From contig DATDTA010000145.1 in the NCBI GenBank assembly GCA_035291085.1, forward strand, positions 193 to 64,192: a DNA stretch of 64,000 nt, in the 5' to 3' direction. This DNA is from Candidatus Nanoarchaeia archaeon (GTDB taxonomy: Archaea > Nanobdellota > Nanobdellia > Woesearchaeales > GW2011-AR9). Numbering within the stretch: the stretch's first letter is position 1; every line of letters begins with the position of its first letter. A program made the position numbers and the translations under genes. The notes beneath the pieces were generated by a model that was not told the origin of the DNA, did no database searches, and worked only from the letters and a program-made list of their open reading frames with translations. Below, in pieces: positions 3,311-11,384 of this stretch.

Positions 3311-4099
3311 CTAGAGATGTATAAAGCGTTGTAAAGTTCCTTCATCCAGCCATCGGGTATACTTCTCATAATCTTCAACCGTATCAAATTCTAACCAGCC
3401 ACGATTAATGACTATCGGCTTCACTTCTTGTCCAGTATTGATCAGCGCCTGCAGCATGCAAGTCATGTATGCTTTCTTGAACGATTTGGATCTCAACCAT
3501 GGTTCATCTTTGTCAAAGCATTGCTGTTTATGATAGTGATAGACTTCCTTCAGTTTTTGCACTCCTTTTTTAGAAAATTTGATCAGGCCAACATATCTAA
3601 GCTGAGCCTTATCCCGAGCGCATTTTGTATCTCCTAACTCCACGATCTTCCCATCCTTGACTACCAAACTTTCCATGTCCTCTTCTGGCTTATCAGTTCG
3701 CGCGCACCAGTATTCCCAGTAATCTTGATCGACAGTAACTCCTACTTCTACTGGCGCATCAATAATAACCTGAAGAACTTTTGGCTCATAGATAACATCC
3801 GCATAGCAGACGAGAACATCTTCTTTTCCATCTAATTCTTTTTCAGCACAGAATAATGTCTCTACCATATTAGTGTTGGCAAAATCTGGATTACGATAAT
3901 ACTTCACTCCTTCAAGAGCTATCTTCTCCGGCTGATATCCTCGCACAATAGAGATGTCAGTAATTCCTGCCCTGCGTAATGTATCAACTTGCCGTTCAAT
4001 TAATGATTTTCCAGCAAAATTAAGCATGCATTTCGGAAGATTTTCGGTATACTTTCCTAATCGTGTTCCCATTCCGGCTGCAAGAATGATGGCTTTCAT
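3311..4099 (-). CDS. LicC-like phospho-alcohol/phosphonate cytidylyltransferase (sugar-phosphate nucleotidyltransferase fold).
   Basis: The N-terminus MKAIILAAGMGTRLGKYTENLPKCML... matches the G-x-G-T-R-L signature and the overall pattern of LicC-type CTP:phosphocholine (or 2-aminoethylphosphonate) cytidylyltransferases. Length is 262 aa. Confidence 0.65.
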   Translation of the reverse strand: MKAIILAAGMGTRLGKYTENLPKCMLNFAGKSLIERQVDTLRRAGITDISIVRGYQPEKIALEGVKYYRNPDFANTNMVETLFCAEKELDGKEDVLVCYADVIYEPKVLQVIIDAPVEVGVTVDQDYWEYWCARTDKPEEDMESLVVKDGKIVELGDTKCARDKAQLRYVGLIKFSKKGVQKLKEVYHYHKQQCFDKDEPWLRSKSFKKAYMTCMLQALINTGQEVKPIVINRGWLEFDTVEDYEKYTRWLDEGTLQRFIHL

Positions 4100-4184
4100 G
4101 CTATCTTGGATTGAGAATTTGATTTAAAATGTTATGTTTTTAGTTACGTAACCTTTATAAAATAACTATTGAAGTGATTATTTC

Positions 4185-5045
4185 ATGTATCTTCATCTTA
4201 TCAGGCATGGACCTAAGAACAATGACCCAAATGTTCATGGAACAGGAGTCGAAGCGCTGTTGGATCCTTCGCAATTGCATAAAATCGTTAATTATGGGAA
4301 ATATCTCCAGCAGAGAGCGGGACAAAGTAGATCTCAGCGAATTATTCTTGAAACTACTCCAGTAGAACGGGCAAAAGCAACAGCTGAAGTCTTGTATAGA
4401 ACTATGATTATACAACTTGAACCGGCTTTTAGTTATGTTAAGCCATCAGTAAATCCTTTAATTGGTTCTTATGCTTACGATGAACAAGGTAAGGCTGTAA
4501 ATTTAGGACCTCAAGCTATGTCCAAATTATGGGCAGAAGCTAAGAAATCAGAACATTGTAATCAATTCCAAGGAGAACACCAACCATTATACGCTTGGTG
4601 TGAGCAAGGATTTGATAATAAGCAAGCAAACAATCCTGCGGATCCTGGTATTTCACTGCGAGAAATATCCTGCAGAATAGGAACATATGTTTATCAGACT
4701 TTGCAAGAGAAAGAGAACCGCGACTTTATTACTGCAATCGGTCATTCGGGGGATATCGAACCGTTTCTATATCTATGCTTGGAAATGCTTGAGGGAAGAG
4801 ATGGAAGTAACCACGATGCATTAACTAGACATTTCAAAAAAACAAGGGGAGCTTTAGAACCATTAACTGGTATCGGCATTGCTTATGATCATTCAGACTT
4901 GTACCTTAGTCATCCATCGGAAAATTCCAGCAAGATGTTTAGAAAAAAAATAGGTATCGAATTATTCCAAGAGCAAGATAATTGGCTTAAAGAAAACGGA
5001 AGAAGTCAGCAAGTTCTTGAAAAGAAAATAGCTGGAGAGAAATAA
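4185..5045 (+). CDS. Histidine phosphatase superfamily protein (phosphoglycerate-mutase-like).
   Basis: N-terminal LIRHGPK (RHG catalytic motif) and a later GHSGDIEPF histidine motif. Confidence 0.55.
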   Translation: MYLHLIRHGPKNNDPNVHGTGVEALLDPSQLHKIVNYGKYLQQRAGQSRSQRIILETTPVERAKATAEVLYRTMIIQLEPAFSYVKPSVNPLIGSYAYDEQGKAVNLGPQAMSKLWAEAKKSEHCNQFQGEHQPLYAWCEQGFDNKQANNPADPGISLREISCRIGTYVYQTLQEKENRDFITAIGHSGDIEPFLYLCLEMLEGRDGSNHDALTRHFKKTRGALEPLTGIGIAYDHSDLYLSHPSENSSKMFRKKIGIELFQEQDNWLKENGRSQQVLEKKIAGEK

Positions 5046-5046
5046 A

Positions 5047-9115: not shown

Positions 9116-9214
9116 ACGTGAAAGGAATGAAACCGTATTTAAAGGTGATGAAAAGAGGTTCTTTTAGGAAGTGGAACAAAACAAATTAAAAAAGTAGAAA
9201 AAATAAAACCGTAG

Positions 9215-10609
9215 CTAATTCTTACGGCAGATGTAAAGGGGAGACCTTTTGGGTATACCAAAATAACCCTTCGCATCCATCTCTTTCTTGGCGATAACAG
9301 CATATTTTTCATAGAAATCGCTGGCTACAGCGATGTTTCTTGGCTCAACACCGGTCCTGACATAATCCAGAAGAATTTGCATATCGGTGACTTTCAGCAG
9401 ATCCTCGGAAACTAATTTCTGGACCTGGGAGAAATAACGCAGCAACATGCCGTCCGCGACTTCTTCCGTGAAACTATCTATGATCCTATCAGTAGGAAAG
9501 TTGGGGTCAAGTGATTTTCCGATTTCATAGACATTAAACATATGCCTCTCGCTGTTGCTGGTAACAGTTACAAAACCGTCTTTTTTCACTACCCGGCGCA
9601 GCTCTTTAAGGGCTTTATCTTTATTTTCCGCGTGGTAAACGACGTGATGCGCCATGACAATATCAAAAGATTCATCAGCATATTTCAGATTTTCAATATC
9701 AGCAACTTCAAAGGAAACATTATTTCCTTTTACATTCTGTCTTGCCTTATCTACCATCCCTTGAGAGAAATCGGTAAGCACCACTATCGATCCCGCAGGA
9801 AGCTTAGCTACATTTTCCTGCCAAAAAATTCCCGTGCCGCAGCCGACATCCAAAACTTTCACGGGTTTAGTGATCTGCAAGTGTCTAAAAACCCAGCCAT
9901 GGAGTGATTCCTGCTCAGAGCCAAAATTATGAATCGCGATGCGCGCCTCCAAATAATTGCTTTTTTTGTATTGCTTTTCTTTTAGGTAATCCTTATTAAT
10001 TTCTAGATTTTTATTTGCTTGCTCTCCAATACGAAATGAATCCACTCCTGCGCAGCCAACATTGCTTACCTGAGTTTTATCCCCTTCAAAATCAACACGA
10101 AATACATCGGGCATACCCATGGAACGCCACTCTTCATATCCGTACGGCTCCAATCCAAATTCCTTTACCACTGCTCCAATCAAGGTGCCATGCGTCATTA
10201 CTGCTGCTGCTGTTCCTTCTTCCAGCTGATCCTTGATTTTGTTCAGAGCCTGCAAAGCGCGCCGGGCTGCTTCATGACGGGATTCTCCGCCTTCGGTCTT
10301 AAAATTGTGGTCGGCCCACAAATTTTTCCTCACTTCGTTTTTGTCATCGCTGGGCTTGGTAGGGAGCTTAAGCTCGTGAAATTCGTTCACGACGCTAATA
10401 GACAAGCCGCTGCTCTGAGAAAATGGTTGAAATGATTGAATTGCCCGCACATATGGGCTGGAATAAAGCTTGCTTATTTTCGGAGAGAGCGATTCAAAAA
10501 CAGCTTTCAATTGTTGAGCCTGCGCCACGCCTTCTTCTAACAGGACGCGTTCTTCTTCTTTTCCCTCTAGGCTTGCTTTACCATGACGAATTAAATATAT
10601 TGTTTTCAT
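9215..10609 (-). CDS. Fusion: histidine phosphatase (N-terminal) joined to a class I SAM-dependent methyltransferase (C-terminal).
   Basis: N-terminus MKTIYLIRHGKASLEG (RHG motif). The C-terminal half has VLDVGCGTGIFW (SAM-binding motif I) and DIVMAHHVVYH. Confidence 0.7.
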   Translation of the reverse strand: MKTIYLIRHGKASLEGKEEERVLLEEGVAQAQQLKAVFESLSPKISKLYSSPYVRAIQSFQPFSQSSGLSISVVNEFHELKLPTKPSDDKNEVRKNLWADHNFKTEGGESRHEAARRALQALNKIKDQLEEGTAAAVMTHGTLIGAVVKEFGLEPYGYEEWRSMGMPDVFRVDFEGDKTQVSNVGCAGVDSFRIGEQANKNLEINKDYLKEKQYKKSNYLEARIAIHNFGSEQESLHGWVFRHLQITKPVKVLDVGCGTGIFWQENVAKLPAGSIVVLTDFSQGMVDKARQNVKGNNVSFEVADIENLKYADESFDIVMAHHVVYHAENKDKALKELRRVVKKDGFVTVTSNSERHMFNVYEIGKSLDPNFPTDRIIDSFTEEVADGMLLRYFSQVQKLVSEDLLKVTDMQILLDYVRTGVEPRNIAVASDFYEKYAVIAKKEMDAKGYFGIPKRSPLYICRKN

Positions 10610-10703
10610 AGGACTTACCTCTTCAGTTTTTATCTCTTTTGATGATGGTTGATTTATAAATATTCTGAAAGATGAGCTCTAAAGAATTGAGACGATAAAA
10701 TGC

Positions 10704-11384
10704 TTATGATTTAATCATACTCTTAATCTGCCGGTATTGCACGAACATTACTGCCGCCCAGTATAAGTTGCCAAAAGTTGCCCAAAACCAGAGGACCAAG
10801 ATGGGCACGTTGAATACTGCAGCCAGGAAGAGGAACAAGTAAAATAGATTTGACCCATAAACATCGCGGAGCCATTCATATTTTCCTTTTCCAGGGATAG
10901 GAAGCCTTTCATTCTTGCCAGTAATCTCGTTTTTGTAGAAATGAATAATTAAATAATGGGTAGGATAGCTCAATATAGCCAGCATGCCTAGCACGAGGGC
11001 TAGATAATTTCCCAGTCCAACCGCCAGTGCAAACACCAACAATGGAAAAGTGATAAAGTCGATCATAGCATCTAGCCATTTCCCCAGCAGTGATCCTAAA
11101 CCAGTAGCTCTGGCCAGGCATCCGTCAACCATGTCAAAGATATTAGCGACAAAGGCGATGCTTGCCCCGATAAGGATATTACGGTATCCGCCTAAAATAA
11201 GAAAGTACGCCGCTGCGATTGCCAGGATGAACGATAGCAGGCTTACTTGGTTAGGAGTTACAGAAGTATATTTAGCCAGGAATCGGTTAAGAGGTCTTCC
11301 TAAATAATCAAAGATAAGGCAGCCCCACTCTTTGTGTTTATCGTGGACTCCGGAAAAATTAACCTCTCTTTTTTGTCTCATCAT
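10704..11384 (-). CDS. CDP-alcohol phosphatidyltransferase family membrane protein.
   Basis: Canonical motif DMVDGCLARATGLGSLLGKWLDAMIDFI (D-G-x2-A-R-x8-G-x3-D-x3-D) and multiple hydrophobic helices. Confidence 0.75.
   Translation of the reverse strand: MMRQKREVNFSGVHDKHKEWGCLIFDYLGRPLNRFLAKYTSVTPNQVSLLSFILAIAAAYFLILGGYRNILIGASIAFVANIFDMVDGCLARATGLGSLLGKWLDAMIDFITFPLLVFALAVGLGNYLALVLGMLAILSYPTHYLIIHFYKNEITGKNERLPIPGKGKYEWLRDVYGSNLFYLFLFLAAVFNVPILVLWFWATFGNLYWAAVMFVQYRQIKSMIKS

Follow-up and report, generated by a model that had tools for sequence, protein, structure and literature searches.

What is made by the string of closely spaced genes at the start of a 64-kb stretch of Candidatus Nanoarchaeia DNA (contig DATDTA010000145.1; the whole stretch is hereafter called the window), in which cytidylyltransferase-type proteins, a large kinase-like protein, a glutamine-amidotransferase-like hydrolase, and a membrane CDP-alcohol phosphotransferase occur together? 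A preliminary description proposed that a phospho-alcohol headgroup is built, activated as CDP-X, and attached to a lipid or glycan. Annotation of the open reading frames (ORFs) of the window with Pfam and NCBIfam upheld the general logic of that proposal, i.e., that a small phospho-group is built, CDP-activated, probably methylated, and passed to a glycan or lipid. Its chemistry did not survive: X is predicted to be a phosphoramidate (P-NH2), rather than choline, a phosphonate, or an N-methyl-alcohol, because the names and models of the relatives of the kinase, the hydrolase, and one cytidylyltransferase are those of a glutamine pathway. We consider it probable that the region is the DPANN form of the cytidine-diphosphoramidate pathway of Campylobacter, of the type that leads to the O-methyl phosphoramidate (MeOPN) on the capsule of Campylobacter jejuni, set inside a surface-glycan island. 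The ORFs listed in the preliminary description are real, at the coordinates it gave, and all but one carry the Pfam domains claimed; long ORFs with E-values of the size reported below are far beyond chance. The functions assigned here are predictions for uncultured organisms.

In Campylobacter jejuni, Cj1418 is an L-glutamine kinase, Cj1416 a phosphoglutamine cytidylyltransferase, and Cj1417 a gamma-glutamyl-CDP-amidate hydrolase; the MeOPN locus also contains the methyltransferase genes cj1419/1420 and the transferase genes cj1421/1422. Together with Cj1415, Cj1416-Cj1418 make CDP-phosphoramidate 3'-phosphate from glutamine, ATP, and CTP (PMC11800397, PMC3907429); no function has been assigned to Cj1419 or Cj1420, and the attachment of methyl phosphoramidate to polysaccharide is still to be worked out. 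Homology, synteny, and gene fusions argue with good confidence for the same first three steps in the window: (i) a 972-amino-acid (aa) kinase would phosphorylate L-glutamine, (ii) a LicC-like enzyme would add CMP from CTP to the glutamine phosphate, giving CDP-L-glutamine, and (iii) a C26-family hydrolase would remove glutamate, leaving cytidine diphosphoramidate, CMP-O-P(O)(O-)-NH2. By annotation, these core proteins show every feature of Cj1416-1418 that we examined, and the feature of Cj1415 is absent from the window.

The 972-aa protein (6197-9115, minus strand) is a cytidylyltransferase-kinase fusion in which Pfam recognizes CTP_transf_like (aa 27-116), PPDK_N, and PEP-utilizers domains. 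Its L-glutamine-kinase-like body (aa 179-970, nt 6197-8581) joins an ATP-grasp domain of the pyruvate phosphate dikinase (PPDK) type to a phosphohistidine swivel domain, and matches the NCBIfam model NF004508/PRK05849 along the full length (841 bits; cut-off 501). The whole protein is identical to an NCBI entry from a Candidatus Nanoarchaeia metagenome-assembled genome; homologues at 55-60% identity carry the JGI name 'glutamine kinase', and the close homologues all belong to Woesearchaeota or Nanoarchaeota (DPANN). Two motifs, G925-G-V-A-S-H930 in the kinase body and F29-H-Y-G-H33 in the fused N-terminal domain, are kept in more than 95% of over 100 homologues (full-length ones for FHYGH). 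The domains, the family match, and H930 thus supply the ATP-grasp and swivel domains and the catalytic histidine of a glutamine kinase related to PPDK and phosphoenolpyruvate (PEP) synthase. By sequence, the protein is a member of the PPDK-like glutamine-kinase family and not the alcohol or headgroup kinase that it had been taken for. The first annotation of Cj1418 itself was PEP synthase or pyruvate phosphate dikinase (PMC10971088), and the archaeal kinase today carries one of the same type.

The conservation of this gene's neighborhood had been set beforehand as a test of whether the genes belong together. We fetched 51 loci (L001-L051), and the counts given here use the window and the 39 loci that contain the kinase (14 from species-representative genomes, 22 from metagenomes, and 3 from exact-protein look-ups). 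Six-frame ORFs of the loci were searched with the window proteins, and kinases at least 85% identical were collapsed, yielding 30 groups, 22 of which have at least 2.5 kb of downstream sequence. A LicC-like gene lies downstream of the kinase in all 22 of these non-redundant groups, and a C26 gene in 20 of them. The core is thus tightly linked, not scattered, and the usual arrangement is kinase, C26, LicC-like on one strand, with genes that mostly overlap or are separated by a few nucleotides. DPANN archaea, Haloferax elongans (L012), Microbispora (L014), and an AT-rich marine contig (L035) share this order, and it matches cj1418c-cj1417c-cj1416c, which we take to be the order in Campylobacter; in two loci of Bacteroidota type (L010, L031), the kinase and LicC-like genes occur and C26 is missing. 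The gene that comes after the core in Haloferax and L035 encodes a homologue of adenosine 5'-phosphosulfate (APS) kinase of the PRK05541 type, the family to which Cj1415 presumably belongs. Further, an alignment-based scan of IMG/VR revealed two giant-virus contigs (GVMAG-M-3300024261-33 and GVMAG-M-3300009496-9) in which Peptidase_C26, an NTP transferase of the LicC-like type, and the PPDK_N/PEP-utilizers kinase form one plus-strand polypeptide of about 1,170-1,280 aa (L047:6576-10406, L048:6675-10178), a fusion indicating that the three functions are tied together. Single-protein pattern scans of viral sequences gave no match; the alignment-based scan alone succeeded.

The hydrolase gene (5510-6190, minus strand) begins 6 nt past the end of the kinase gene. 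Its product, which no longer has to be seen as an unexplained extra, is a Peptidase_C26 or class-I glutamine-amidotransferase-like hydrolase (Pfam, 1.8e-37, with GATase also matched), and its best NCBIfam model is NF045546, gamma-glutamyl-CDP-amidate hydrolase, at 88.7 bits, which gives it a putative role in glutamate removal. NF045546 is also the best model for the kinase-adjacent C26 proteins of Haloferax, Microbispora, and L035 (71-101 bits). The catalytic residues Cys106 (in GICRGMQ) and His199-Pro-Glu201 are present, so that the class-I amidotransferase fold, the Cys-His-Glu triad, and the position next to the kinase are all those of the Campylobacter hydrolase. The protein is a candidate Cj1417-like gamma-glutamyl-CDP-amidate hydrolase that would remove glutamate from CDP-glutamine.

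The third core protein (3311-4099, minus strand) is a LicC-like nucleotidyltransferase (NTP_transf_3 / NTP_transferase, E = 8.6e-18) with an intact LAAGMGTRL motif. It scores 234, 167, and 106 bits against the kinase-adjacent genes of Bacteroidota, Haloferax, and Microbispora, respectively, and at most 36 bits against sugar-1-phosphate transferases. Its substrate-binding half carries a signature common to all kinase-adjacent LicC-like members, archaeal and bacterial, and homologues at 68-71% identity (P0294, P0303) bear the JGI name 'L-glutamine-phosphate cytidylyltransferase'. The LicC / NTP_transf_3 fold and the place beside the hydrolase are those of a phosphoglutamine cytidylyltransferase, a fold that taken alone does not discriminate. 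By sequence, the protein falls in a kinase-associated group of its own, and we regard it as a candidate Cj1416-like CTP:phosphoglutamine cytidylyltransferase. The preliminary description had expected it to side with LicC and not with the sugar-1-phosphate transferases; the fold leaves this undecided, and by sequence the protein does not join the sugar-phosphate group, but does not join LicC either.

Could the same enzymes instead make a choline-, ethanolamine-, or phosphonate-like headgroup, possibly N-methylated, carried as a CDP-alcohol by LicC-/TagD-like enzymes, attached, and then trimmed by a phosphatase? Such a route would account for LicC (1jyk; 1.2e-12) being the best solved sequence relative of the 3311-4099 protein, for the likeness of the kinase's N-terminal domain to ethanolamine-phosphate and glycerol-3-phosphate cytidylyltransferases and a Fom1 domain, for a methyltransferase domain nearest to phosphoethanolamine N-methyltransferases, and for the resemblance of the CDP-alcohol transferase to AF2299, AIPS, and DIPPS. 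The LicC match, however, amounts to 51 bits over aa 1-90 only, and the protein scores two to five times higher against kinase-adjacent genes of distant phyla than against LicC. The headgroup route also has no role for the PPDK-type kinase or the C26 hydrolase, the tightest partners of the LicC-like protein in archaea, bacteria, and viruses. The region yielded neither a choline or ethanolamine kinase nor a PEP mutase; the ORFs annotated at 1-24.7 kb, and most of the larger ORFs beyond, show no kinase domain of the choline or APH type. The LicC/LicA/CPT route put forward earlier is accordingly disfavored, and we judge a phospho-alcohol headgroup of any of these kinds very improbable.

Several points weigh against the phosphoramidate assignment of the core. 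The 88.7 bits of the C26 protein lie far under the NF045546 equivalog cut-off of 250. NF004508, the family to which Cj1418 presumably belongs, is itself labeled only 'hypothetical protein'; the bacterial homologues of the 972-aa protein are just 33-38% identical to it. The AlphaFold2 model of the LicC-like protein is of high quality (pLDDT 93.8), but Foldseek places IPCT, PntC, RmlA, and LicC of the PDB all at E-values of 1e-15 to 1e-17, so that the fold fails to separate inositol-phosphate, phosphonate, choline-phosphate, and sugar-phosphate transferases. No APS-kinase homologue of the Cj1415 type lies anywhere in the 64-kb window, although one may lie elsewhere in the genome; such homologues are present in related loci (L012, L035, L003, L022, L013, L042), and in one protein (P0084) the cytidylyltransferase-kinase is preceded by a fused N-terminal APS-kinase domain. 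The genome scan for kinase loci returned no Campylobacter locus, the PDB matches to the core proteins include no Cj1416-1418 structures, and the Campylobacter link is drawn from curated models, source names, and gene order, not from direct comparison with C. jejuni. There are also two cytidylyltransferases here, for a pathway with a single known cytidylyl transfer. Finally, the literature searched reports no chemically detected phosphoramidate from any archaeon; queries on phosphoramidate in DPANN archaea found nothing (a query on Woesearchaeota gave only a preprint on Borg elements, discussed later), and a query for PRK05849 had no matches.

How would the activated amidate reach its acceptor? 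Upstream of the kinase lies an integral-membrane CDP-alcohol phosphotransferase (10704-11384, minus strand; CDP-OH_P_transf, 5.5e-13), in which the PF01066 motif, D84xxDGxxAR...GxxxDxxxD109 (DMVDGCLAR...), is intact. Its closest solved relative is AF2299 (8.5e-10), and the IPCT/DIPPS model NF041135 gives just 35-39 bits against a cut-off of 580; with a setting in a glycan island with a flippase, a solute pathway of the IPCT/DIPPS or diglycerol-phosphate type is not indicated. Among 12 DPANN groups (non-redundant loci with at least 5 kb on both sides of the kinase), seven encode a member of this family no more than about 8 kb from the kinase, and another occurs in L037; in L030 it is immediately upstream, and in L005 a close orthologue (296 bits) is two genes upstream. 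We tentatively suggest, as a possibility of less than even weight, that this enzyme takes phosphoramidate from the CDP-amidate and places it on a hydroxyl group. The hydroxyl, on a dolichol-linked sugar or on a lipid, would attack the beta-phosphorus of the CDP-amidate and CMP would be released, replacing the Campylobacter route of 3'-phosphorylation by Cj1415 and transfer by Cj1421/Cj1422. We propose this because (i) displacement on CDP-X is the normal chemistry of the family, (ii) the transferase is in the operon and recurs in related islands, (iii) the window is without the kinase that prepares the Campylobacter donor, and (iv) the Fta system of Clostridioides difficile methylates a CDP-linked group and then transfers it to a sugar. 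If true, the CDP-alcohol phosphotransferase family would gain a non-alcohol donor.

This last step has its own difficulties. To our knowledge, no CDP-alcohol phosphotransferase accepts a CDP-amidate. In L003, L022, and L037, members of the family occur together with APS-kinase homologues, so that the family does not simply replace the kinase route. Proteins of the sulfatase / alkaline-phosphatase superfamily, another plausible type of transferase, are encoded in 5 of the 12 islands. These recurring proteins (L004:5415-7298, L037:17559-18686, L039:7318-8439, L040:6701-7924, L041:6748-8004) are in some cases membrane-anchored, and their genes lie in some islands just upstream of a pyruvate kinase-ATP-sulfurylase gene (discussed later) and in others beside methyltransferase genes; none is encoded in the window.

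Methylation, either on the nucleotide, as FtaC acts on CDP-threonine, or after transfer, would fall to the gene between the phosphotransferase and the kinase (9215-10609, minus strand), a fusion of His_Phos_1 (2.5e-20; aa 4-182, nt 10064-10600) with a class-I S-adenosylmethionine (SAM)-dependent methyltransferase (6e-24; aa 248-353, nt 9551-9868). The SAM motif LDVGCGTG is kept, and the nearest solved enzymes are phosphoethanolamine N-methyltransferases, at 49 bits. The phosphatase half retains R8-H9, R55, E109, and H140, as expected of a branch-1 histidine phosphatase, and is apparently active. This fusion was seen only in the species of the window (the window and L032); stand-alone class-I methyltransferases are present in 6 of the 12 related DPANN groups. 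The protein is a candidate for the methylation step in place of Cj1419/Cj1420.

A methyltransferase and a CDP-dependent phosphotransferase are likewise what FtaC and FtaD provide for the CDP-N-methylthreonine of C. difficile flagellin glycosylation, and with bacterial kinase homologues so distant from the 972-aa protein, the kinase might phosphorylate something other than glutamine to yield a CDP-amino-acid-type donor that is transferred intact. We find this hardly likely. A conserved, even kinase-fused C26 hydrolase presupposes the cleavage of a glutamyl amide; in the available part of the Fta account, the phosphothreonine comes from phosphoserine and no such hydrolase is described.

The phosphoramidate reading must also find work for a second cytidylyltransferase, the HxGH-type domain at the N-terminus of the kinase (aa 1-165, nt 8621-9115; CTP_transf_like). 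Its nearest solved structures are ethanolamine-phosphate cytidylyltransferase, a Fom1 domain, and TagD, whose substrates are small phospho- or phosphono-compounds. The domain is found in nearly all of the 120 best homologues, and H30, G32, and H33 are invariant in a sample of 25 sequences; it is presumably active. The Haloferax kinase has a LicC-fold domain fused to it in the corresponding place, and a second nucleotidyltransferase recurs in the archaeal examples examined (the window, Haloferax, and the Borgs). Most likely, the domain captures labile glutamine phosphate or performs a second cytidylyl transfer.

Alternatively, two decorations may be made in parallel, the core supplying CDP-amidate for another transferase, and the HxGH domain supplying CDP-glycerol or CDP-ethanolamine to the CDP-alcohol phosphotransferase, with trimming by the histidine phosphatase. 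Delivery of the amidate would then fall to a protein of the sulfatase/alkaline-phosphatase family, as a candidate, or to a 3'-phosphorylation route encoded elsewhere. Such a division would explain why there are two cytidylyltransferases for one known cytidylyl step, and is in keeping with the APS-kinase homologues that accompany the transferase in three loci and with the sulfatase-family genes of 5 of the 12 islands. It also agrees with the presence of a CDP-alcohol transferase in 7 of 12 loci whose kinase bears the HxGH domain, compared with 0 of 4-5 loci without it; this association is, however, confounded by phylogeny, as all of the loci are from DPANN archaea. The fusion to a glutamine kinase argues that the domain acts on the kinase product, Haloferax has a different nucleotidyltransferase fold at the same place, and no gene supplying a phospho-alcohol was identified. 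On balance, we rate parallel decorations as rather unlikely, and continue with a single phosphoramidate pathway.

Two further genes of the same string, both missing from the preliminary description, were considered as possible parts of that pathway. The first, directly downstream of the LicC-like gene, encodes a pyruvate-kinase (PK) barrel, a PUA_2 domain, and an ATP-sulfurylase (984-3239, minus strand; Pfam, PK aa 3-320, sulfurylase aa 366-737). It scores 434 bits against the NCBIfam sat subfamily model NF003166, whose cut-off is 387, and the best PDB match of its sulfurylase part is the ATP sulfurylase of M. thermolithotrophicus. The PK part is without its C domain, and the loop DTKGPEIR reads DTEGSQ(I/V)R. 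The fusion is very widespread and well conserved in Woesearchaeota/Nanoarchaeota, at 62-95% identity; the sources label homologues (P0121-P0240) 'pyruvate kinase' or 'sulfate adenylyltransferase', and some carry an additional APS-kinase domain (P0169, P0171, P0173, P0191). It follows the core in L001, L013, L015, L016, and L019, and in P0138/L042 it is fused to a LicC-like domain and followed by an APS kinase. Without a glutamine kinase nearby, it stands beside a canonical APS kinase in L040 and L041, and in L043 it is fused to an APS kinase and followed by a CysQ-like phosphatase. The substrate loops are FHTRN / GRDHTG in 120 of 120 relatives, compared with the canonical FQTRN / GRDHAG. This exchange of Q for H was examined as a marker of a new substrate, and was weakened by its presence in all 120 PK-fused relatives, even those in APS-kinase/CysQ contexts.

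The second gene (5047-5487, plus strand) sits between the hydrolase and LicC-like genes on the opposite strand and encodes a HIT-family nucleotide hydrolase or transferase (HIT, 1.6e-8; motif H93-I-H-Y-Q97), with HIT proteins and Ap4A phosphorylase as its PDB relatives. A strict HxHxQ transferase was considered and dropped, as the third position is H or Q among homologues. HIT genes lie between or beside the core genes in L009/L025, L013, L016, L039, L044, and L046; among all loci with enough sequence to tell, HIT is confined to those that have the core together with a sulfurylase or sulfurylase-like gene. One nucleotide upstream of the HIT gene ends a gene for a 286-aa protein (4185-5045, plus strand), and with this 1-nt gap the two are presumably co-transcribed. 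Of the two histidine phosphatases named in the preliminary description, the one at 9215-10609 was confirmed by its own Pfam match; the 286-aa protein has no Pfam or PDB match of its own and is supported through its relatives, of which 3 of 25 match His_Phos_1 (best E = 1.4e-10). In its family (42 clusters among 1.84 billion representatives, i.e., rare but real), H8 is invariant, R7 and R62 are nearly invariant, and the RHG and HSG(D) motifs are kept. An hhalign comparison with the other phosphatase domain is in register but weak (E = 0.0015, probability 16%), and BLASTP recovers only the LIRHG motif. We classify the protein as a divergent member of the histidine-phosphatase superfamily, with transitive support. 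Its gene is mostly deleted in a close relative (L016), which raised the possibility of lineage-specific junk; this was rejected given the same pairing with HIT in L044, where the pair is beside the LicC-like gene, and in L046, where it is between C26 and LicC-like. The 286-aa phosphatase thus accompanies the HIT protein, not the CDP-alcohol transferase, and the pair probably hydrolyses or interconverts stray nucleotide-amidates.

Do the sulfurylase, HIT, and divergent phosphatase proteins belong to the P-N pathway itself, acting on nucleoside (di)phosphoramidates as APS analogues instead of on sulfate? A CDP-amidate is isosteric with a nucleoside phosphosulfate; the sulfurylase gene follows the LicC-like gene in five or more lineages, once by fusion, and occupies what we take to be the position of cj1415 in the Campylobacter order. 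The restriction of HIT to loci where core and sulfurylase coincide fits as well. In addition, stand-alone ATP-sulfurylase-like genes occur near HIT and the core in three loci (L009:8744-9922, L025:8744-9895, L039:16418-17512), and in L009 and L039 their loops read FSTTN and GRDH(E/S)G, not FQTRN and GRDHAG, at positions that are sulfate contacts in the yeast enzyme. These stand-alone enzymes, with the presumed sulfate-binding Gln and Arg replaced, may act on another anion. The PK-fused clade, in contrast, scores above the curated sulfate-adenylyltransferase cut-off, keeps the Arg of the TRN motif in 120 of 120 members, and also occurs far from any glutamine kinase, beside the canonical APS kinase and CysQ-like phosphatase of a classical set for 3'-phosphoadenosine 5'-phosphosulfate (PAPS). 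Because it passes that cut-off, is widely conserved, and occurs without the kinase beside the PAPS set, the fusion of the window most likely activates sulfate for a second anionic decoration of the same glycan. Direct involvement in amidate chemistry is a minority possibility, with more weight for the stand-alone variants, and membership of all three proteins in the P-N pathway seems to us improbable, if less so than a phospho-alcohol product. The most far-reaching version of the phosphoramidate reading, in which a DPANN glycan or lipid would be given its P-N decoration by a non-Campylobacter route (CDP-amidate, perhaps already methylated on the nucleotide, used directly by the CDP-alcohol phosphotransferase without 3'-phosphorylation, with the fused cytidylyltransferase, the HIT/His-phosphatase pair, and altered sulfurylases forming an amidate metabolism tied to sulfate activation), we hold to be a speculative prospect, less probable than the transfer step alone.

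The genes discussed above lie within 984-13294, where nearly every gene is on the minus strand with short gaps to the next. In the direction of reading, the order is an AglJ-like GT2 dolichyl-phosphate hexose transferase (12407-13294; TIGR04182 AglJ, 2e-40; dolichyl-phosphate hexose transferase, 2.9e-34), a GT4 glycosyltransferase (11442-12398; Pfam/NCBIfam), the CDP-alcohol phosphotransferase, the phosphatase-methyltransferase fusion, the 972-aa kinase, and C26; then the plus-strand 286-aa/HIT pair; and then, again on the minus strand, LicC-like, PK-ATP-sulfurylase, and a partial ORF (1-918). The two glycosyltransferase genes stand at the head of the string, with gaps of 8 and 57 nt to neighboring genes. 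The partial ORF, of at least 306 aa, comes right after the PK-ATP-sulfurylase gene, downstream of it, and continues beyond the start of the window; it has no Pfam match, and its stretch AEASEEIGL resembles the second half of a Nudix box. On the other side, a Fic/DOC-family protein (13660-14556, plus strand) adjoins the head of the string on the opposite strand.

By domain annotation, the remainder of the window is one large surface-glycan island, including glycosyltransferases, a Wzx-type flippase, DegT aminotransferases, a UDP-GlcNAc 2-epimerase, a UDP-sugar dehydrogenase, carbamoyltransferases, and a PMT_2 protein; a tRNA scan of the 64 kb detected none. The related loci are likewise rich in glycosyltransferases, flippase, sugar-modifying enzymes, and NeuB. 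A 989-aa protein (55541-58510, minus strand) unites several steps of nonulosonic-acid synthesis, being a fusion of a DegT-type aminotransferase, a CMP-sugar-type cytidylyltransferase (CTP_transf_3), NeuB, and SAF. Two carbamoyltransferases are encoded on the minus strand (35404-37164 and 41028-44204), the latter (1058 aa) fused to DUF4910/DUF2172 (M28-peptidase-like) and a winged-helix HTH_47 domain. The segment 44001-48000 has a G+C content of 0.33-0.34, compared with about 0.40 elsewhere in the window, and may be a separately acquired piece of the island; inside it lies a fusion of MaoC-like and aminoglycoside 3-N-acetyltransferase-like domains (44201-45424). A 558-aa protein (39136-40812, plus strand) has weak Epimerase_2 and Capsule_synth (KpsS/KpsC-like) matches, and a homologue (277 bits; L018:15725-17266) is found in L005/L018, some 3 kb downstream from the core; the protein is an alternative candidate for a glycan-acting transferase. 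B12-binding radical-SAM enzymes are encoded in the window (30915-33011, plus strand) and, as two copies beside a sulfurylase-like gene, in L039 (18390-21251), which hints at more unusual C- or P-methylation chemistry.

P-N bonds are rare in biology, and the glutamine-kinase route has been demonstrated in Campylobacter only; a 2022 review called the glutamine kinase C. jejuni-specific, and a 2019 review knew MeOPN from Campylobacter only. The three-enzyme core is widespread, being strongly conserved in DPANN archaea and present in a haloarchaeon, an actinomycete, Bacteroidota, and giant-virus contigs, suggesting that phosphoramidate decoration may be a general and overlooked surface chemistry. 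Its relevance would be greatest for episymbiotic archaea, whose surface mediates contact with the host. The archaeal accessory proteins (the CDP-alcohol phosphotransferase, the fused cytidylyltransferase, and the HIT/phosphatase pair) are candidates for transfer, methylation, and turnover. Present labels such as 'PEP-utilizing enzyme', 'phosphocholine cytidylyltransferase family', 'choline kinase', and 'pyruvate kinase' are misleading.

Among known systems, the MeOPN locus of C. jejuni shares with the window the three core enzyme families, the gene order, the setting in a surface-polysaccharide locus, and SAM methyltransferases close by; elsewhere in the archaeal group there is an APS-kinase homologue as the following gene or as a fused domain, recalling Cj1415. 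The window differs in its DPANN host, in the HxGH domain fused to the kinase, in having no Cj1415-type kinase within 64 kb, in the CDP-alcohol phosphotransferase and phosphatase-methyltransferase fusion in the operon, in the HIT/His-phosphatase pair between the core genes, and in the PK-ATP-sulfurylase downstream. Closer in host is the four-gene cluster of a Borg, an extrachromosomal element of Methanoperedens, proposed for MeOPN from structure predictions (bioRxiv 10.1101/2024.11.05.622173). This cluster is also archaeal, has counterparts of Cj1416, Cj1417, and Cj1418 and two cytidylyltransferase-type proteins, and lies in a glycoconjugate region; its second, LicC-like cytidylyltransferase is fused to a PEP-mutase domain, whereas the second one here is fused to the kinase, and a CDP-alcohol phosphotransferase, HIT, and sulfurylase are not described in the available part of that preprint. 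Here, the genes sit on a 64.7-kb contig from the metagenome-assembled genome of a DPANN archaeon.

The late logic proposed for the window is shared with FtaABCD of C. difficile, where a CDP-carried group is methylated with SAM and moved with its phosphate to a sugar hydroxyl, CMP leaving (CDP-threonine to CDP-N-methylthreonine to a phosphodiester on GlcNAc). FtaD is TagF-like, without the classical CDP-alcohol-phosphotransferase motif, whereas the enzyme here belongs to the classical membrane family, and the Fta donor retains its amino acid, whereas predicted removal of the amino acid would here leave P-NH2. The LicC/CPT and IPCT/DIPPS routes similarly pair a LicC-/IPCT-fold cytidylyltransferase with a CDP-alcohol phosphotransferase, and the transferase has its nearest relatives in DIPPS and AF2299; in the window, however, an alcohol kinase and an inositol-phosphate synthase were not found, the cytidylyltransferase is kinase-associated, and the predicted donor is an amidate. 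PAPS synthesis is approached by the C-terminal two-thirds of the 984-3239 protein, a sulfurylase homologue with relatives beside APS kinase and CysQ-like genes, and the Cj1415 step chemically mirrors the conversion of APS to PAPS; the window differs in the PK barrel at the N-terminus and in the FHTRN / GRDHTG loops, and an APS kinase and sulfotransferase were not identified in it. Set against these systems, and with the automated JGI names already in existence, what is new in the window is a known core in a new host group, the DPANN archaea, with new fusions and a different set of genes for the late steps.

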